A stretch of DNA of 64,000 bases from assembly GCA_026394775.1 (NCBI GenBank), contig JAPLZY010000008.1, positions 53,367-117,366 of the forward strand. Direction: 5' to 3'. The position numbers and the translations under genes were made by a program. Under the pieces are notes generated by a model. It ran no database searches and was not told the DNA's origin. It worked only from the letters and a program-made list of their open reading frames with translations. Positions 6,577 to 26,250 of the stretch are shown one piece after another; position 1 is the first letter of the stretch; the number at the start of each line of letters is the position of its first letter. This stretch comes from Candidatus Zambryskiibacteriota bacterium (GTDB lineage Bacteria > Patescibacteriota > Minisyncoccia > Phycocordibacterales > DATDWN01).

Positions 6577-7132
6577 AGCTTCATTCGGTATGAAAAAAAC
6601 ATTAGATTTAAAAAGCGGCGTTTGAGATAACAAGCTTAATTGATTGTTACCTGGACTCCGCTTTGTGCGGATTTTTTGTTTCTCGGCCTGGCTCGATATT
6701 TGACAACTTAATTCCGCCACTTACTACTGACCAATGATGGGTCTTTTCGGGTGGGTAGGCGGAGCAATACAATGTTACTAACATCGAATAGATATTAGAT
6801 AACAGAGTATGAATGTAAGAAATATAATTGTGGTTTTTAAATTTCCTAATGGGAAATTTAAGAGCATATGGTGGATGCCTAGACTCTAAAGGGCGATGAA
6901 AGACGCGGCATGGTGGCGATACGTTTCGGGGAGGTACCTAGCAACCTTTGATCCGGAAATCTCTGAATGGGGGAACCCAACAGCTTTTGCTGTTACTCTA
7001 CAAATTATGTAGAGCGCACACCCAGGGAAGTAAAACATTTCAGTACCTGGAGGAAAAGAAAACAATGTTCGTAAGAACGACATTTCGTTAGTAGCGGCGA
7101 GCGAACACGAATGAGCCCAAACCGGCACATCA

Positions 7133-7244
7133 CATTGAGCACGGGGAAAATTTTAAATTTAAAATTCTAAATTTCAAAACAAAATGCATGTGCATCCGTT
7201 TTAAAATTTGAAATTAGAAATTTGAAATTCATCCCGCTCTTAGC
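7133..7244 (+). repeat. AT-rich imperfect palindrome inserted in 23S domain I (helix 9-type IVS/expansion)
   Basis: gaaaattttaaatttaaaattctaaatttcaaaac ... gttttaaaatttgaaattagaaatttgaaattc forms a long hairpin. It is closed by ccggcacatcac/gtgatgtgccgg. Confidence 0.55.
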
Positions 7245-7466
7245 GTGATGTGCCGGGGTTGTAAGGTAACAACGTCAAATTTATTTGAGAGAAGTTAAAA
7301 AATAGTATGTTAATGGAATGCACTGGAAAGTGCGACCCTAGAGGGTAATAGTCCCGTACATGAAAATATACTATCTTCTTTGTTGTTATTCTTGAGTACC
7401 TCGAGACATGAATAGCTCGGGGGAATCTGCCGGTACTAACCGGTAAGGCTAAATACTTTTAGAGAT

Positions 7467-7505
<39 letters not shown>

Positions 7506-8922
7506 GTCCGAGAGGACGGTGAAATAGACCTGAAACCATATGCTTACAAGGAGTCGGAGCGGGCAGCAATGTCCCGTCACGGCGTGCCTATTGAAGAATG
7601 AGCCAACGAGTTGATGGATGCAGCAAGGCTAAGTCCTTTACCGGACGGAGTCGTAGGGAAACCGAGTGTGAATAGCGCGTTAAGTTGTATGCATCAGACC
7701 CGAAGCCAGAGCGAGCTTACCATGAGCAGGGTGAACTTTGTCGAAAGATGAAGGGAGGCCCGAACAGTTTAGCCGTGCAATACTATCTGATGACTTGTGG
7801 TAAGAAGTGAAAAGCTAATCGAGCCTGGTAATAGCTGGTTCTCTCCGAAATAGCTTTTGGGCTAGCGTTAGGTGATCCCTTCCGGGGTAGAGCACTGGAA
7901 GGACTCAACAGGGAGCAATCTCGTGAGTCCTATCAAACTCCGAATACGGAAGATTACAGCCTAGCAGTTAGACGGTGGGGGCTAAGCTCCATACGTCAAA
8001 AGGGAAACAGCCCTGATCTCTATTTAAGGTCCCTAAATCTATGTTAAGTACACTTAAGGTGGTGGATTTTCTTTGACACTGAGGAGGTTGGCTTAGAAGC
8101 AGCCATCCTTTAAAGATAGCGTAACAGCTCACTCAGTAAGAGAATCTGCGCCGCAAATAATCGGGGTTAAACATAGTACCGAAACTGAGGGTTTGTATTT
8201 GTTTTTACAAGTACAAGCGGTAGGAGAGTATTCGTATCTGCGCTGAAGCCAAAGGGGTGACCCATGGTGGAGCGATGCGAAGTAAGAATGTTGGCACAAG
8301 TAACCACAATGCAGGTGAAATCCCTGCACGCCGAAAGACTAAGGTTTCCTGTTCAATGTTAATCAGAGCAGGGTTAGTCGGGCCTAAGGAAATGGAGAGA
8401 TCCGCATCCGATGGACATGAGGTTAATATTCCTCAACTTTTATGTAATGCGATGGAAGGACGGAGTGCTGTATGTAGGGCTCATTATTGGATTTGAGTCA
8501 CTGTCGTGAGAATGTGTCCCAGGTAAATCCGGGCACTCACTTTAATGTGGTATTCGAGCGGTTGCGAAACCTTGCGATTCGTCAAGAGGGATTCTACAAA
8601 GCGCGCTTCCAAGAAAAGTTTCTAAGCTTAAGTACATAAGAACCGTACCGTAAACCGACACAGGTAGTCAGGTCGAGTAGACCAAGGCGAACGAGTGAGA
8701 GATCCCCAAGGAACTCGGCAAAAAAGCAGCCGTAACTTCGGAATAAGGCTTGCCCACTTTAATGTGGGCCGCAGCTAAAGTATTTCTGGCAACTGTTTAT
8801 CAAAAACACAGCTCCCTGCGAACTCGTAAGAGGATGTATAGGGGGTGACACCTGACCAATGCCAGAAGGTCAAATATGGGAGCTAAATGTCGCAAGACGC
8901 TAGGTTGACTGTATAAGCCCTG

Positions 8923-9416
<494 letters not shown>

Positions 9417-9955
9417 GCGCACGAATGGTGTAATGACTGGAAAACTGTCTCGGGGATTTGCTCGGTGAAAATACAATACCGGTGAAGATGCCGGTTACCT
9501 GCAGTTAGACGAAAAGACCCCAGGAGCTTTACTGCATCTTGATATTGAGAATATGACTTGCATGCGTAGCATAGTGGTGAGGATTTGAAGGGCACTCCCG
9601 GGTAGCCTGGATCCGTCAGTGAAATAGCCATCTTGTTTGTTATATTTTCTAACCTCGGCGGAAAAAACGACGAGAGACAGTGTCTGGTGGGCAGTTTTAG
9701 TGGGGCGCTATCCTCCTAAAAAGTAACGGAGGAGTTTATTAAGGTCAGCTAGCCGTGAATGGAAACCATGGCGATAGTGTAATGGCACAAGCTGGCTTAA
9801 CTGTGAGACGTACATGTCAAACAGATGCGAAAGCAGAACATAGTGAACCGACGGTCCGTGTTAGAGGCGGCCGGAGATTATCGGATAAAAGCTACCCTGG
9901 GGATAACAGGCTGGTTGTGCCTAAGCGTCCAAAGCGACGGCACAGTTCGGCACCT

Positions 9956-10801
9956 TAACTCTCAATGTAAAAATTGGGAAACATCGGGGTGCCTATGGGA
10001 GTAATTCCATACAAAAAATATTTGGCTTATAACGGTGGACTCCATATACAAGCGTTGTATCAGAAATGGTATAATTAAAACAATATGGACAATACCGCGG
10101 GAAGTTTAACTCAATTACAGAAGTCATTTGTTATTGGAACTCTTTTGGGAGACGGATATATTCGTCAAGCAAAAGGGAGAAAAAACGCATTTCTTGAAGT
10201 AAATCATTCAATTACTCAAAAAGAGTATGTTGAATGGAAATATAGTATCTTGAAAAATTTGACACGAAGCGGTCCAAAATCTAGAAATGGAAATGGAACA
10301 CGCATCGCGTATAGATTTTTTACTAGACAGCATCCAGAATTTACTAAAATTATGGATTTGTTCTATAAAGATAGAAAGAAATGTATTCCTAATCTAAAAT
10401 TAGATCCTTTAATGGTGGCAGTATGGTTCATGGACGATGGAAGTAGATGTAATAAAGAAAATGTATACCTTAATACTCAACAATTTGCTAAAGAAGATCA
10501 GTATAAACTACTTGAATCTTTGAAAGAGATTGGTTTAGAGGGAACTCTGAACAAAGATAAAGAGTATTATCGCATTAGAATTAAAACATCAAGTATTCCT
10601 AAGTTGTTTGGAATAATAAAAGAATTTATTATTCCTTCCATGAGATATAAAATTGGGTTATGACCCTGTAGAGACTTGACCTGAAAGATGGTCAGAGTGT
10701 GAAGGAAAACTTCATGCTAACACGCCGAACTCCCTTTCATTTAGAGAAAGGGATGAAGATATAGTCCGATCCTTCTGGTAACAGAAGAAAAATACGACAC
10801 G
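9956..10801 (+). mobile_element. group I intron 2 in 23S (domain V, near E. coli position ~2500) carrying an intact LAGLIDADG HEG
   Basis: Exon GGCACCT|...|CGATGTCGGCTCATC. R-like gaccctgtagagacttgacc and S-like gatgaagatatagtcc elements are present. Confidence 0.75.
10085..10663 (+). CDS. LAGLIDADG homing endonuclease (double-motif, monomeric type)
   Basis: Motif 1 VIGTLLGDGYI and motif 2 VAVWFMDDGS, 192 aa, located inside the 23S intron. Confidence 0.85.
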   Translation: MDNTAGSLTQLQKSFVIGTLLGDGYIRQAKGRKNAFLEVNHSITQKEYVEWKYSILKNLTRSGPKSRNGNGTRIAYRFFTRQHPEFTKIMDLFYKDRKKCIPNLKLDPLMVAVWFMDDGSRCNKENVYLNTQQFAKEDQYKLLESLKEIGLEGTLNKDKEYYRIRIKTSSIPKLFGIIKEFIIPSMRYKIGL

Positions 10802-10896
10802 CGATGTCGGCTCATCTTATCCTGGGGGTGGAGAAGCTCCCAAGGGTTTGGCTGTTCGCCAATTAAAAAGATACGCGAGCTGGGTTCAGACCGTGG

Positions 10897-11234
10897 AGAC
10901 GAGAAACTTCGGTTTCAAGTCTCCACAATCTGAATCCTTAGAGGTTTTTTCGTTTGAAAAGGAAAAAGAAATGTAAGAAATTTCTTAAATATAAAAAGAG
11001 CTCGCCTCATCGGCGAGTCCGTCGAAGAGACGGAATAGGAACAATCACATCACGGCGGCATTTTATGGAAACATAAAATAGAGAAGCTGGGTATTTCGGT
11101 AGAATCCATTTCTAAGTGGACAATGCCGAGGGTGACTAATAATTTAGTTACTTGTAGAGACTACATACCAGCCATCCATGCAAATGGATGAGCGCATAGT
11201 CCGAACCTTCGAGTAATCGGAGTAACATAAGCGT
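10897..11234 (+). mobile_element. group I intron 3 in 23S at the I-CreI-type site (near E. coli 2593), ORF-less
   Basis: Exon GACCGTG|...|AGACAGGTTGGTCTCCTATCT (E. coli CGTCGTGAGACAGTTCGG). R-like cttgtagagactaca and S-like gcgcatagtccgaacc are present. Boundaries are ±3 nt. Confidence 0.65.
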
Positions 11235-11295
11235 GAGACAGGTTGGTCTCCTATCTACTGCAGGCGTTGATTCTTGAGAAGATTTGCCCCTAGTA

Positions 11296-12105
11296 ATTGA
11301 ATTGCTACTTCAAGGAGTAATCCTTGATGAAATAGTGGCTAATAACGGTGAAGTCTTAAGTGTATTCTAGTCTGTTGATAACTATTCTTGTGACGGTCCG
11401 TCATGAGTAGTACAATTTGTTTAGTGATAAACAAGCTTGAAGACCAGAAATAATTAAGATAATACCGTGGGAAGTCGATCTATTATTGATAGAGCATATA
11501 TGCAGGATTTCTCGATGGCGATGGAAGCTTAATGCTTCAAATTAAGAAAAGAGCAGATGGAAAAAGTAAAATTCGTTTTATGGCAACCATTTGTTTCTAT
11601 CAAGATACTCGTCACGAAAAAGAATTGATTTGGATTCAGAAAGTTCTAGGTATCGGATACATCTCGCGCAGAAATGACGGGATGTCTGAGATTAGAATTA
11701 ATGGATTTAAAACAGTTAAAGAAATTCTGGAAGACTTGATACCATATATCAGGTTTAAAAGGATTCAAGCAAAAAGTTTGCTTGAATCGTGCACAATTTT
11801 GTCTTCGACAAAATTTAATATGCTCAATCGTGAACAGCTAACTAAACTTGTTAATCTTGTCTTAGTGATTCAGAATGAAAATTACGTCACTAAGAAGAAG
11901 AAAACACGAAGTGAATTGTTACAGATAATAGGTTTGACCCCGTAACGACTTGTTTGAGTAATGTCAAACAGATTTATGTAGTACTGGAAAGTCTTGTGTA
12001 CTGAAACATGAGACAGGGCTACATTTATAATACGCCAACACCCTCAACCTTTTAAGGTCGGGTGAAGATATAGTCTGTGCTCCTGGTAACAGGGGAATAA
12101 AACGA
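11296..12105 (+). mobile_element. group I intron 4 in 23S, inserted within the sarcin-ricin loop sequence (CTAGTA|CGAGAGGACC)
   Basis: Exon ...gcccctagta|...|cgagaggaccggggtgaactgacc. The downstream exon aligns base for base with E. coli 2658-2760. S-like ggtgaagatatagtctg is present near the 3' end. Confidence 0.65.
11458..11945 (+). pseudogene. degenerate I-CreI-like single-motif LAGLIDADG homing endonuclease (start codon lost, -1 frameshift before the motif)
   Basis: Frame 1 reads DNTVGSRSIIDRAY (compare MDNTAGSLTQL of the intact HEG), but its ATG is replaced by taaGAT. The frame shifts at about 11500-11504 into AGFLDGDGSLMLQIKKRADG...GIGYISRR..., which shows the I-CreI fold pattern. Confidence 0.6.
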
Positions 12106-12452
12106 CGAGAGGACCGGGGTGAACTGACCTCTGGTGTATCTGCTGTCTTGCCAAAGGCATCGCAGAGTAGCTAAGTTGGGAAATGATAAACGCTGAAAGC
12201 ATCTAAGCGTGAAGCATACTTCAAGATAAGGAATCGTTTGAGACCCGTAAGAGATGATTACGTGATAGGCACTCGGTGTACGCACAGCAATGTGTTGAGC
12301 CAAGGTGTACTAATTAGTCGATTCTTATTAGGAAATTTACGAACCACTCCACTTCGGTGTGGAGGTTATACAAAATACATTCATGCTCTGTTATCTGATA
12401 TTAATTTGTCAGAGTTTTTTGGCATAAAAAAGAAAATAAATAATTGAATCTT

Positions 12453-12586
12453 TAGTTCTGGTGATTCGTCGCAGATGGTCCGCCCTACAGGCGCTGTACA
12501 CCTTTTACATTTTGCTATTTATTAAAATCGCAAAATGATCAAGGTCTTGCGCTTGGGTCCCATCCCAAGCTCACCTGTTCTCATTC
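12453..12586 (+). pseudogene. partial 5S rRNA pseudo-copy interrupted by a 97-nt insert containing a REP-like hairpin
   Basis: 12453-12474 is identical to 5S nt 1-22 and 12572-12586 is identical to 5S nt ~27-42. Between them lies gcttggg-tcccat-cccaagc. The 3' two thirds of 5S are missing. Confidence 0.5.
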
Positions 12587-12610
12587 AATTAATACAATCA
12601 GTTGAAAATT

Positions 12611-12725
12611 TAGTTCTGGTGATTCGTCGCAAAGGTCACACCTGTTCTCATTCCGAACACAGTAGTTAAGCTTTGTTGAGGCGATGATACTCCGCAAGGG
12701 GGAAAGTAGCTAGTCGCCAGAACTA
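12611..12725 (+). rRNA. rrf: 5S rRNA
   Basis: agttctggtg...cacctgttctcattccgaacacag...ccagaacta. Helix I pairing and the conserved CCGAACAC loop are present. Confidence 0.85.
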
Positions 12726-22420: not shown

Positions 22421-22744
22421 ATAAAATTTGCTTTTGCAATTTTTACCAAGAGTTTGATCCTAGCTCAGGATGAACGCTGGCGGCGTGGATAAGGCATGCA
22501 AGTCGAGCGCCTCGCAAGAGGAGCGGCGAACGAGGTAGTAACACGTTGGTACACACCCTTTAGTCAGGAATAACTAGTCGAAAGATTAGCTAATACTTGA
22601 TAGTCTCTTCGGAGTAAAGATTTATCGCTAAAGGAGTGGCCTGCGGAGTATCAGCTAGTTGGTAAGGTAATGGCTTACCAAGGCTATGACGCTTAGAGGA
22701 CCTGAGAGGGTGACCCTCACCGATGGTACTGAGACACGGACCAT

Positions 22745-22775
<31 letters not shown>

Positions 22776-22904
22776 CCGCAATGGGCGAAAGCCTGACGGA
22801 GCGACGCCGCGTGATTGATGAAGTCCCTCTGGGATGTAAAGATCTTTTATGAGGGAGAAAGTTTATTGATAGTACCTCATGAATAAGGGGTTGCTAAACT
22901 CGTG

Positions 22905-23838
22905 AGAGGCAGATTAAGCATCTGCAATCCTAATTTAGTAACAGCATTAAAAATTCGTATTTACCGTGCGCGACTTTGAACCGTAAGGTTCTTAGCAAAT
23001 TCGGCTTATATGCTGGGACTCTGTACAGAGCTGCGTTCAACACATGTTGAATTCTCTACAGACAATCAGCAGGGAAGTCGGATATAATAAAGGTAATGTC
23101 TTTATCGCAAATTCAACAATATATTCTCACAGGGCTTTTGCTTGGAGATGGTTGTCTTGAACGAAAGTCCAAGAACAGCCGACTCCAGGTCAAACAGTCA
23201 GTAGGTAAGAAAGAATATGTATTCTGGTTATATAATTATTTTTCTGAATTCGTAAAAACTCCTCCCCAACAAAGGAAGGATACAAATCAGTGGTATTTTG
23301 CCACTCGATCTTTATCTCAATTTGAAGAATGGAATGCGGTGTTTTACAAAAACAGAAAGAAAATTGTTCCAGAAAATATATCAGAGTTATTGGCTTCGCC
23401 GATAACACTTGCCGTATGGATGATGGAACTCTCGATTATCGAGAGAAATCACATTATTCATTTACCTATAGTACTGACTCGTTTAGTGTAGAAGAGGTTT
23501 CTCTTCTACAGGATGCTTTGTTAGAAAACTTTGGGATAGAATCATCGATTCAAACTCCAAAGTCGCGAGGAAAAAAATATACAAAATTGTATATTGGAAA
23601 AAATGGGCGAGAGCGATTTATAAAAATCATTCAGCCTCACATCCTCGATTGTTTTCCGTATAAAGTGCCTCCAATTATATCTTGACCCCTCAGAGACTGA
23701 TCCTGCGGACATATTAATGTATGTCTTGAGGGTGAGATAGAGAGATTTTTTTAAATCTTCTATCAGACGCCGAACCCCATTTTTTATAGAATGGGTGATG
23801 ATATAGTCCAATCCTCGTAGTGATATGAGAACAACTGG
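22905..23838 (+). mobile_element. group I intron in the 16S 530-loop region (near E. coli 516-518) with a decayed HEG
   Basis: Exon ...gctaaactcgtg|...|ccagcagcagcggtaatac. R-like ccctcagagactgatcc and S-like ggtgatgatatagtcc are present. Confidence 0.75.
23096..23685 (+). pseudogene. frameshifted double-motif LAGLIDADG homing endonuclease
   Basis: Motif 1 LTGLLLGDGCL lies in one frame and motif 2 ...LAVWMM/MDDGTLDYREK continues in the -1 frame. The break is at about 23415-23430, within the direct repeat tggatgatgga. Confidence 0.65.
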
Positions 23839-24471
23839 CCAGCAGCAGCGGTAATACGAGTGCCCCAAGCGTTATCCGGAATTATTGGGCGTAAAGGGTG
23901 TGTAGGTGGTAGTGTTAGTCTTTTGTAAAATCTCCAGGCTTAACCTGGAAACCGCGAAAGAAACGGCACAACTAGAGGGTGCGAGGGATGTATGGAACTC
24001 ATGGAGTAGGGGTGAAATCCGTTGATATCATGGGGAACACCAAAAGCGAAGGCAATACATTGGCGCATTCCTGACACTGAAACACGAAAGCGTGGGTAGC
24101 GAATGGGATTAGATACCCCAGTAGTCCACGCCCTAAACGATCTTCTCTAGCTTTTCGGAGTATCGACCCTCTGAGAGGCGAAGCTAACGCGTTAAGAGAA
24201 GCGCCTGGGTAGTACGACCGCAAGGTTAAAACTCAAAGGAATAGACGGGGACTTGCACAAGCAGAGGATTATGTGGTTTAATTCGACGATAAACGAAGAA
24301 TCTTACCAAGGTTTGAAACCTAGCTGAATATATTTGGAAACAGATATAGTCTCACAAGGACAGTTAGGCAGGTGATGCATGGCCGTCGTCAGTTCGTGAT
24401 TTGAATTGTTCCCTTAAGTGGGGTAACGAACGCAACCCTCGTTGTCTGTTACAAGTGTCAGGCGAGACTGC

Positions 24472-24612
24472 TCAGCTCTTTGCGTAGAAAAGCAAAGAGG
24501 ACATAAAACAGAAACGAGATGAAACGATAACTATAAATAATAAGTAGAAAGTAAAAGAAGGAAGTGATTCGGGACGTCCCGTTTCTGTTAGCTTTTGTAA
24601 ATAAAGAGCTGA
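24472..24612 (+). other. ~130-nt expansion of 16S helix 40
   Basis: gactgctcagctcttt...aaagagctgag-aggaaggtg replaces the E. coli CCAGTGATAAACTGG hairpin. Confidence 0.5.
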
Positions 24613-24837
24613 GAGGAAGGTGAGGATGACGCCAGGTCAGCATGTCCCTCTGATACCTTGGGCTACACACATAATACAATGGTCACTACAACGCGTCGCG
24701 ACGGGGAAACCCTGAGCCAATCGTAATAAAAGTGGCCCCAGTTCGGATTGAGGGCTGAAACTCGACCTCATGAAGTTGGATTTGCTAGTAATCGCGGGTC
24801 AGACATACCGCGGTGAATACGTTCTCAAGTCTTGTAC

Positions 24838-25257
24838 TCAAAATTAAAAGCGCCGGGCAGGTAATAAATCTAGTTGGTTAAAATCCAACCTTGAAAAAGT
24901 AGCGAAAGGGTAATCTGCTGACCGTGAGGTTGGCAGGTGAAGGATCCTAGTAGCAAAAAGCAGCCTATTTATAAAAAGAGAGGTACGACCCATCAGGTGA
25001 GTCATGGGGAAGTATCAACAAAATTAAGTTTTTGGTCTCAAGTAGGATGCAAGGAACAGAGTTATTACTGACCCCTGGGAGATCTCATGGTGTAAAAGAC
25101 AATGAATAAGTACCTTGAGAAGTCAGCTGCGTCGTAGTAGTTTCGATCTAGTATCGGAATGAAGGACAAAATCGTTAGTTTTTGAAACTAACGAACTCGC
25201 GTAGTGCGGGAAATCCGCACGCTACGTGGGAACGCGAAATATTGTTAAATTATCGCC
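24838..25257 (+). mobile_element. ~420-nt intron-like insertion in 16S adjacent to the decoding-centre sequence (TTGTAC|...|CCGCCCGTCA), ORF-less, class uncertain
   Basis: The exons align to E. coli 1385-1405 with the insert between them. R/S-like gacccctgggagatc and cgatctagtatcgg are only loosely canonical. Confidence 0.55.
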
Positions 25258-25505
25258 ATCCGCCCGTCAACTCAAGGGAGATGGGAATACCCGAAGCCTC
25301 ACGTATGTGAGTTCACGGTAAGTTCATCGACAGGGAGTAAGTCGTAACAAGGCACGGCTAGCGGAAGCTGGTCGTGGATTAATTCAATTTGAAACCTATT
25401 TCGCTTTGCGAAATATTAAGGTGTCGATATTGGAGATCTCGATCGAGTCTCTAATGGACTATGACTGTAGTCTTAAAAACAGTATGACACCAGAGAAAGA
25501 TCTGG

Positions 25506-25531
25506 TAGAACGGAACAAAATATAGAATAGT
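25506..25531 (+). promoter_or_regulatory. 3' strand of the 16S processing stem
   Basis: Complementary to 22394-22420. Confidence 0.6.
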
Positions 25532-25542
25532 ATTTTTAGAAA

Positions 25543-25568
25543 AAACGCCCATAACAAGGCGTTTTTTC
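25543..25568 (+). terminator. terminator after 16S
   Basis: aaaacgcc-cataacaa-ggcgtttttt. Confidence 0.7.
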
Positions 25569-25584
25569 TATGTAAAAACAAAGC

Positions 25585-25614
25585 TTGACTTATAGAAGTC
25601 ATGCGTTGTATAAT
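25585..25614 (+). promoter_or_regulatory. promoter TTGACT-18-TATAAT
   Basis: Upstream of a small ORF and the tRNA-Ile locus. Confidence 0.45.
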
Positions 25615-25622
25615 ATTTTCAG

Positions 25623-25865
25623 ATGAGATACCAAAAAACAATCACATGTTTGTTTATGGTTTTGGCAATCGGTCTGCTTTGCGGTATCAAGCCTGATCAG
25701 ACGGCGTTGTCATCGGTCCTGCACGTAGCAGGGATTGTCGTGTGTATTGTGGTGCTTTTCTTCAATGATGTGCTTCCTGATCTTCAGGGGGCAAAAAAAG
25801 AAGAGTGGGAGATGCGCCACCCTGCCTCAAATAATCCTTCGCGTCACCTTGTCGTGCGGAGGTAA
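25623..25865 (+). CDS. possible small membrane protein (80 aa)
   Basis: ATG sits 9 nt after the -10 box. Two hydrophobic helices are predicted. Could be spurious. Confidence 0.3.
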   Translation: MRYQKTITCLFMVLAIGLLCGIKPDQTALSSVLHVAGIVVCIVVLFFNDVLPDLQGAKKEEWEMRHPASNNPSRHLVVRR

Positions 25866-25993
25866 AATTTTGGAAGACCGCCGAGTCTTCCAACAAAGCC
25901 GGTATGCCCTGCGGGATCCGGCTTTTGTCTTGTAAAAATGACCTTTTTCTGATATATTTTTGTGGTTATTGTTTTAGAAATTGTGTTAAAAGT

Positions 25994-26017
25994 GCGCGTG
26001 TAGCTCAGCTGGTGGAG
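25994..26017 (+). pseudogene. 5' fragment of tRNA-Ile (acceptor and D arm), identical to nt 1-20 of the intact gene
   Basis: gcgcgtgtagctcagctggtGgag followed immediately by the 31-nt module tgaggttgggtagggacccaaccgcaagacc. Confidence 0.5.
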
Positions 26018-26177
26018 TGAGGTTGGGTAGGGACCCAACCGCAAGACCGGAGGCCGACGGGCCGAGGTGGGGTCGCGAGCAAAGTCAGTAGACTTTGACA
26101 TGTGGCATCGACTGACCTCTTGCAGAGGCTGTATACCTTTTGGATCTTTTTCAAAAAATAATAATAATTGATTCTGT

Positions 26178-26250
26178 GCGCGTGTAGCTCAGCTGGTAGA
26201 GCAATCGACTGATACTCGGTAGGTCCCAAGTTCGACCCTTGGCACGCGCA
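26178..26250 (+). tRNA. tRNA-Ile (anticodon GAT)
   Basis: Manual fold gives a 7-bp acceptor gcgcgtg/cacgcgc, D stem gctc/gagc, anticodon stem atcga/tcggt, loop ctGATac, T stem ccaag/cttgg, T loop ttcgacc and discriminator A. No CCA is encoded. Confidence 0.8.

Follow-up and report, generated by a model that had tools for sequence, protein, structure and literature searches.

A group I intron with a frameshifted homing-endonuclease gene in the sarcin-ricin loop of a Patescibacteria 23S rRNA gene

The 23S rRNA gene described here lies in a 64,000-nt stretch of DNA (hereafter, the window) from Candidatus Zambryskiibacteriota bacterium, contig JAPLZY010000008.1, positions 53,367 to 117,366 of the forward strand. 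Four introns interrupt the gene (Table 1); a 5S rRNA gene follows on its 3' side at 12615-12722, and the 16S rRNA gene lies ~10 kb farther downstream. The nearest relatives of the protein encoded by the fourth intron, and those of the flanking genes, are labelled Zambryskibacteria, Paceibacteria, or Patescibacteria. Here, we describe this fourth intron, at site L2656 within the sarcin-ricin loop (SRL), together with the LAGLIDADG homing-endonuclease gene that it carries. It is very probably a mobile group I intron of a class found at position 2656/2657 of 23S rRNA in bacteria of the candidate phyla radiation (CPR; i.e., Patescibacteria), with a ribozyme that looks intact and an endonuclease that is dead. 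The feature is real, its mechanism is conventional, and the site and the class have already been published.

Table 1. The 23S rRNA gene of the window, its introns, and the elements of the L2656 intron (ORF, open reading frame; MFE, minimum free energy)
Feature	Position	Strand	Details
23S rRNA gene	6848-12330 (3' end approximate)	+	four introns inside
Intron 1	8958-9386	+	site L1931
Intron 2	9956-10801	+	site L2500
Intron 3	10896-11223	+	site L2593
Intron 4 (this study)	11295-12104	+	site L2656; group I intron (IA-like architecture), 810 nt; based on core elements, relatives, junction rules, covariation
5' exon end CCCCUAGU	11287-11294	+	last base U2656, 5' half of SRL (helix 95, H95)
3' exon start ACGAGAGGACCGGGGU	12105-12120	+	A2657 onward, GAGA tetraloop included
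P1	11291-11307	+	exon UAGU and intron AA (11291-96) with UUGCUA (11302-07); U11294-G11304 wobble at 5' splice site
P2 hairpin UCAAGGA-GUAA-UCCUUGA	11310-11327	+	7/7 pairs with compensatory changes; recovered by MFE fold
P3 5' strand UGGC	11336-11339	+	partner GCCA 12034-12037; pseudoknot with P7; 100% paired; 3/4 pairs compensatory
P4 5' strand CGGU	11346-11349	+	partner ACCG 11464-11467; GC to AU in 3 sequences
P5 and variable extension	11354-11459	+	UCUUAA 11354-59 with UUAAGA 11454-59; alignment helix 5
Endonuclease pseudogene (LAGLIDADG_1)	11467-11945	+	start GTG 11467-69; stop TAA 11943-45, inside J6/7
P6 5' strand GGG-AA-GUC	11469-11476	+	partner GAC-CCC 11936-11941; endonuclease ORF occupies loop L6
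1-nt deletion (missing A)	11501-11502	+	GCATATAT followed by GCAGG vs GCATATATAGCAGG in L002, L004; DNA comparison
LAGLIDADG motif AGFLDGDGS	11502-11528	+	out of frame with start codon; catalytic Asp codon 11520-22
J6/7 GUAAC and P7 5' strand GACU	11942-11950	+	P7 partner AGUC 12072-12075; P7 invariant; S element in Rfam alignment
P7.1 and P7.2	11952-12024	+	11952-57 with 11964-69; 11976-81 with 12019-24; hairpins between P7 and P3 3' strand
P8, CACCC with GGGUG	12039-12064	+	alignment helix 8
Conserved S element AAGAUAUAGUC	12065-12075	+	J8/7 and P7 3' strand; Rfam alignment
P9.0, P9 and omega-G	12077-12104	+	P9.0 GUG 12077-79 with AAC 12101-03; P9 CUCCUG-GUAA-CAGGGG 12080-95; omega-G 12104; alignment helices 9-10

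Insertion site, distribution and ribozyme structure

Exons were mapped by BLAST of positions 6700-12500 against the Escherichia coli 23S gene, which gave five collinear exon blocks, and the four intron junctions were read from these blocks by eye. The numbering was calibrated on H69, m5U1939, the A2602 region, and the SRL; positions in the E. coli strain used equal the canonical numbers +2. In this alignment, the 810-nt insert separates U2656 from A2657. The upstream exon ends ...CCCCUAGU(A) and the downstream exon starts (A)CGAGAGGACC, i.e., the sequence of the SRL; equivalently, the exon sequences ...UUUGCCCCUAGU and ACGAGAGGACCGGGGUG join to give the canonical SRL, AGUACGAGAGGACC (A2654-C2667). 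The intron lies after U2656, two bases 5' of the GAGA tetraloop (G2659-A2662). Because the junction A is repeated at both borders, the boundaries 11296-12105 and 11295-12104 give an identical spliced product. With the latter pair, the exon ends in U and the intron in G, in keeping with the requirements of group I chemistry. Moreover, in copies of the intron that have G as their first base (e.g., L083, a WWE3 genome), only a junction of the 11295-12104 type restores the loop.

An earlier note on this DNA, written from the letters alone, had proposed an 810-nt insert that splits the SRL one to two nucleotides before the GAGA tetraloop. The E. coli alignment bears out the location and the length: the split falls two bases before the tetraloop, the junction does not lie outside the SRL, and every sequence that the note quoted is present. 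Its boundaries of 11296-12105 stand as far as the spliced product is concerned, but the choice of splice sites moves them one base to the left. The statement that the downstream exon matches E. coli 2658-2760 base for base was too strong; the SRL/H95 part is nearly identical, whereas the 3' exon as a whole has 68% identity, with insertions and deletions.

The same intron is widespread. We scanned one genome per GTDB species for the pattern AGATATAGTC-N(15-45)-ACGAGAGGACC, i.e., the group I "S" element shortly 5' of the 3' half of the SRL. At least 119 GTDB species genomes, nearly all of them Patescibacteria, carry the L2656 intron at this site; the lineages among the matches listed include Parcubacteria groups, Microgenomates, WWE3, Kerfeldbacteria, Magasanikbacteria, Doudnabacteria, and others. 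Both junctions were definable in 112 copies, the window copy and five metagenome loci among them. All 112 read ...AGU, then intron ...G, then ACGAGAGGACC. They fall into an ORF-less length class of 279-364 nt (16 copies), an intermediate class of 421-701 nt (15 copies), and a full-length class of 735-889 nt (81 copies). As judged from lengths and from tblastn with the intact endonuclease homologue P0001, the endonuclease gene is intact-like in 72 of the 112 copies, partial or frameshifted in 13, and undetectable in 27. The bins of a few contigs with the intron (L023, L064, L088, L093, L105, L108, and L111) carry the labels Elusimicrobiota, Gammaproteobacteria, Mycoplasmatales, or Nanoarchaeota; the contigs themselves probably belong to Patescibacteria and were mis-binned or given a generic label.

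A structure model comprising P1-P9 and the terminal G was derived from the ORF-less copies and tested on a MAFFT alignment of 28 copies, built from sequence only with no structural input. Standard pairs fill 96.6% of the cells, and 26 of the 49 model pairs show compensatory change (both sides altered). The covariation score is 0.402 vs 0.141 for shuffled alignments, with none of 500 shuffles scoring as high. In controls where the partner strand was slid by 1-3 columns, pairing falls to 36-46%, with scores of ≤0.095; an alignment of 99 sequences gives the same picture as the smaller one. A conserved P3-P9 core with a P3/P7 pseudoknot is, therefore, strongly supported by covariation. In the window copy, all core helices are canonical, save for one G-A at the edge of P9.0.

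The ends of the intron are equally constant. The wobble pair of P1 at the 5' splice site is UG in 28/28 aligned copies, U occupies position -1 in 112/112, and the terminal omega-G (G12104 in the window) is likewise found in 112/112. Relatives lengthen the P1 hairpin with GNRA-capped stems, and ORF-less copies have just a short hairpin at P6/L6, where the window copy holds its endonuclease gene. Extra hairpins, P7.1 and P7.2, lie between the 5' strand of P7 and the 3' strand of P3, an IA-like architecture by the definition of that subgroup (PMC1995217, PMC3984707). The MFE fold gives both hairpins (z = -3.3), and they carry compensatory differences among the window copy and the related loci L002 and L004. 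An alternative to P1 in the MFE fold, a GCUACU/AGUGGC pairing, was rejected, as it is not conserved in relatives. Separately, the P5 extension (11395-11450 in the window, with its counterpart in related loci) contains the blocks CGGUCC and CUUGAGGACCAG, which are conserved in many copies and which the ORF-less copies L015 and L111 lack; these blocks suggest a conserved peripheral domain.

The endonuclease gene and its one-base deletion

With its frameshift bridged, the ORF in L6 scores 41-42 bits with LAGLIDADG_1 (PF00961), for which the cutoff is 23.1. Its relatives at E ≤0.001 number 2,683, the top ones being 159 amino acids (aa) long with 98% query coverage, and the intact homologue P0001 is 95% identical to it. 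Among proteins of solved structure in the PDB, the matches extend over the full length: a tandem I-MsoI chain at E = 1e-24, I-CvuI at E = 1e-17, and I-CreI and single I-MsoI chains at ~1e-10 to 1e-13. The positions aligned to D20, Q47, and K98 of I-CreI are conserved, and FLDGDGS of the ORF aligns with VDGDGS of I-CreI, with the catalytic Asp retained. By sequence, the endonuclease is placed in the I-CreI/I-CvuI/I-MsoI family, with a single LAGLIDADG_1 domain. An AlphaFold model of P0001 (pLDDT [predicted local distance difference test] 87) predicts an alpha-beta-beta-alpha-beta-beta-alpha fold for the intact homologue, and Foldseek aligns the model to I-CvuI, I-CreI, and I-MsoI with template-modelling scores of 0.76-0.81.

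Both ends of the ORF fall within the ribozyme core. The first three codons (GUG GGA AGU) lie in the P4/P6 strands, and the last three with the stop codon (UUG ACC CCG UAA) lie in P6/J6-7. Intact 159-aa homologues begin M/VGSRSIIDRAYIAGFLDGDGS..., i.e., M/V-GSRSIIDRAYIAGFLDGDGS. At the DNA level, the start of the family is the GTG inside ACCGTGGGAAGT / ACCGUGGGAAGUC, and this codon is unchanged in the window (11467-11469) as well as in the intact loci L002 and L004. The upstream sequence TAAGATAATACC occurs in intact copies, too. An ancestral ATG at the position of the present TAA was considered and rejected: the intact copies share the upstream TAAGATAATACC and start at GTG. On this comparison, no start codon has been lost from the ORF of the L2656 intron.

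The window copy departs from its intact relatives by one base. Where L002 and L004 read GCATATATAGCAGGATTT, the window reads GCATATAT-GCAGGATTT: one A is gone in codon 12, eleven codons past the GTG, and the gene is 479 nt long instead of 480. As assembled, the GTG frame ends at 11530-32 after 21 codons, and the frame from the start codon through the motif is interrupted. The motif frame has stops at 11488-93 and, from there to the LAGLIDADG helix, contains no ATG, GTG, or TTG; its first ATG is at 11532, 3' of the catalytic Asp codon. The ORF is otherwise clean. Compared with L002, it shows 12 synonymous and 6 non-synonymous codon differences, indicating purifying selection until recently and a young lesion.

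In light of these results, the earlier note was right to recognize a single-motif gene of the I-CreI type (the PF00961 match, with I-MsoI, I-CvuI, and I-CreI as the closest solved relatives) and to place a 1-nt frameshift near 11500, which is the A missing between 11501 and 11502 relative to L002 and L004. The check that it had proposed, scoring the frame-repaired ORF against PF00961, gave the above-cutoff match reported above. Its claim that an ATG has been lost does not hold, since the start codon of the family is a GTG, which the window retains. The claim drew on a likeness to intron 2, and that likeness is real: taaGATAATACCGTGGGAAGT and ATGGACAATACCGCGGGAAGT of intron 2 differ by 2 mismatches over 18 nt, where 0.06 matches are expected by chance. 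However, the region in question belongs to the ribozyme. The block AAUACCGUGGGAAGUC consists of J5/4, the 3' strand of P4, and the 5' strand of P6, and in ORF-less copies it is retained and leads into a short hairpin and UGACCCCGUAACGACU. The likeness reflects a shared P4/P6 core, not coding history.

The note had also allowed that the two frames might stem from a sequencing error. With an error of sequencing or assembly, the genome would really have an intact 159-aa endonuclease gene. The difference is indeed a single base in a short (TA)n context, CATATAT(A)G, and elsewhere the ORF is open, at 95-96% identity with an intact homologue. On the other hand, the context is not a homopolymer, and the truncated 137-aa product is called on four other public contigs (Logan, L126-L129), assembled separately from the runs ERR15302172, ERR15302176, ERR15302177, and SRR20698652, i.e., from two accession series. 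These contigs are 100% identical to the window over 984-1381 nt, deletion included. Because four separately assembled contigs carry the identical deletion, we regard it as a real allele and an error as very unlikely.

The deletion allele recurs in several metagenomes. One further proposal, to which we give even less weight, has two forms. In the first, the deletion allele would be a throttled endonuclease, produced through low-frequency slippage on UAUAU. In the second, milder form, the intact family would represent an uncharacterised natural specificity of the I-CreI clade for SRL DNA, derived from an IA-type scaffold that is shared with the L2500 intron and that moved to a new site, taking a different L6 endonuclease gene.

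We consider it more doubtful again that the endonuclease is still made from this allele, whether by ribosomal or transcriptional slippage on the UAUAU tract or by non-canonical initiation in the second frame. The deletion does sit in a (UA)3 run, and beyond it the frame is open throughout and keeps every catalytic position. Yet we identified neither a known slippery motif nor a stimulatory structure, and intact relatives have no need of recoding. The motif frame also offers no ATG, GTG, or TTG 5' of the helix and has its first ATG beyond the catalytic Asp. In addition, many copies at this site (40/112) have a broken endonuclease gene or none. A dead endonuclease gene remains the preferred reading.

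Proposed splicing and homing, and significance

In the mechanism that we propose, the intron would be transcribed as part of the pre-23S rRNA. The ribozyme would form P1 from the exon UAGU and the internal guide GCUA, followed by the P3-P9 core with the extra P7.1/P7.2 hairpins as in IA introns. Two guanosine-dependent transesterifications would then remove the intron, joining U2656 to A2657 and restoring the SRL. If this copy is the cell's working 23S gene, self-splicing that restores the loop is necessary. Splicing would not depend on the encoded protein, since 27 of the 112 copies have no detectable endonuclease gene.

In intact copies, the product of the L6 gene is predicted to be a homodimeric LAGLIDADG endonuclease of the I-CreI type. 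It would cut intron-less SRL DNA (e.g., TTGAGAAGATTTGCCCCTAGTACGAGAGGACCGGGGTGAACTG), leading to the intron being copied in (homing). In this genome, the A lost eleven codons after the GTG would leave only a 21-residue peptide from that start. The window copy probably represents an early stage of the usual cycle of invasion, endonuclease decay, and ORF loss.

Several observations weigh against this reading. The window copy scores 25.5 bits against the group I intron model RF00028, below the Rfam gathering threshold of 50 bits. This low score arises because the ORF splits the core; the alignment still includes P9 and the GAAGAUAUAGUC element. In L056, an ORF-less homologue that occupies this site reaches 55.8 bits and passes gathering; other ORF-less copies stay below the threshold. 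The exon contributes only 4 base pairs to P1, a helix that MFE folding of the 5' region by itself misses; P10 is at best 1-2 bp. Splicing itself, with the exact ligated junction, we infer from the sequence. As for homing, the pseudo-palindromy of the spliced SRL DNA was scored to predict the centre of cleavage. It is weak and ambiguous, with two centres, the insertion site and a position 4 nt downstream, tied at 6/11.

The least credible of the alternatives is that the insert stays unspliced, being either an intervening sequence excised without ligation to leave a fragmented 23S rRNA (bacterial 23S intervening sequences cut out by RNase III without ligation do exist, and some CPR inserts are such) or a tolerated expansion; the complete group I core, the strong covariation, the invariant U-G at the 5' splice site, the invariant terminal G, and a site within the universally conserved SRL, where a break between U2656 and A2657 would disrupt the bulged-G motif, all argue against it.

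The relevance of these results lies mostly in annotation and completeness, and current understanding is unchanged. They show that homing even into the SRL, one of the most conserved stretches of rRNA, is routine in CPR bacteria. A further effect is that standard rRNA models cut short a gene that holds such introns. The Rfam bacterial large subunit (LSU) match to this 23S gene ends at 10013, because the inserts break up its 3' part, and automatic annotation would shorten the gene by ~2.3 kb. The endonuclease family is a natural relative of I-CreI with a predicted, highly conserved 23S target, and could interest meganuclease engineers. Lastly, the 112 copies at this one site, of which 72 have an intact gene, 13 a broken one, and 27 none, provide a clean data set on the homing cycle.

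Other rRNA inserts and comparison with known systems

The rRNA genes of the window (6848-12722 and 22450-26250) are not linked to one another, and their order is unusual: 23S and 5S come first, and ~10 kb of protein genes separate them from 16S and a tRNA. The L1931 intron, by E. coli homology, ends at GAAACCUAA with AGCGAAAUUCC following, such that its last base is A (9386) rather than the near-universal G. The terminal A is also found in the close relative L002, and L004 and L089 likewise have a non-G last base; L1931 introns at the loci L014, L044, L046, L069, and L119 end in G at the equivalent position. Between E. coli 23S positions 271 and 288 there is an insert of ~185 nt (7120-7304). 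It has no group I signal, and its spurious microRNA-precursor matches suggest that it forms a long hairpin. Rather than an intron, this insert is probably an expansion or an intervening sequence. The 16S rRNA gene is split after approximately model position 546 by an insert at 22977-23688. This insert carries a LAGLIDADG_2 gene over two overlapping frames (ORFs 23096-23491 and 23329-23685), with Pfam profile positions 2-109 in one frame and 109-164 in the other; this gene is the second frameshifted homing-endonuclease gene of the genome. Near the 3' part of the 16S gene, at 25082-25167, there is a match to group II intron D1-D4 of 36.7 bits, just above gathering. This match fits with the LAGLIDADG-bearing, group II-like inserts reported at CPR 16S position 1400.

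The closest comparison within the window itself is with the L2500 intron. The two introns share a scaffold: J3/4-P4, AAUACCGNGGGAAGU, GACCCYGUARNGACUUG, two P7.x hairpins, GAAGAUAUAGUC, and a GUAA-capped P9. The ORF of the L2500 intron is also in L6, but it is an intact LAGLIDADG_2 gene (PF03161; 192 aa, 10085-10663) that starts at an ATG in J5/4, a few bases upstream of the L2656-type start. After trimming of the ORFs, the cores of introns 2 and 4 have 200 identical positions vs a mean of 175 and a maximum of 192 for shuffled sequences. Because this overall identity is only marginal, their kinship rests on the shared architecture and the near-identical core blocks. One scaffold, thus, hosts two endonuclease families at two sites of one gene (L2500 and L2656).

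Among characterized endonucleases, I-CreI, I-CvuI, and I-MsoI, from chloroplast 23S L2593 introns, are likewise proteins of ~160 aa with a single LAGLIDADG motif, similar to the window protein over their full length in sequence and fold, and their genes also lie in a peripheral loop of a 23S group I intron. The differences are that L2656 is 63 nt downstream of L2593, that identity is only 25-32%, and that the window copy is frameshifted. With insertion at L2656 instead of L2593, a different DNA target is expected for the endonuclease. Haugen et al. (2007; PMC1995217) had already described bacterial L2593 introns with P7.1/P7.2 and with ORFs that run into core helices. These cyanobacterial and organellar introns, like the window intron, have a short P2, P7.1/P7.2, and a LAGLIDADG ORF of ~160 aa, but their site differs from L2656, and it is in P4/P6 and P6/J6-7 that the ORF of the window intron has its ends.

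The class to which the window intron belongs was catalogued by Tsurumaki et al. (2024; J Bacteriol, PMC11270868) in a survey of 348 CPR 23S genes. Position 2657 (site 23IS14) is frequently occupied in CPR and is among the sites that predominantly encode LAGLIDADG_1 proteins; group I introns at this position were previously unreported in other bacteria. The authors also found ORF-less and degenerate copies side by side, highly similar except in the ORF. The novelty implied by the earlier note, which had suggested a comparison with catalogued LSU sites, does not survive, since the site is 23IS14/2657 and is occupied in the many species genomes counted above. Our literature search found no paper linking the sarcin-ricin loop to an intron insertion site, and a search for the site names L2655-L2658 and mL2656/7 returned nothing relevant. 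The survey does not mention the SRL and gives no structure model for the class, and the enzyme that it tested, I-ShaI, comes from 23IS7. Our additions to the catalogue are the exact junction, an explicit structure tested by covariation, the placement of the ORF ends inside P4/P6/J6-7, and the finding that the deletion allele is real.

The window intron has the features that define the 23IS14 class: insertion at ~2657, a group I-like structure, a LAGLIDADG_1 ORF, and a CPR host (from the labels of its relatives). The two agree in gene, in site (within one base of alignment convention), in intron type, and in host clade, as well as in the Pfam family of the endonuclease, its single-domain organization, and the mixture of ORF-containing, degenerate, and ORF-less copies. 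Nothing essential differs; the window copy is a member of this class with a specific 1-nt deletion.

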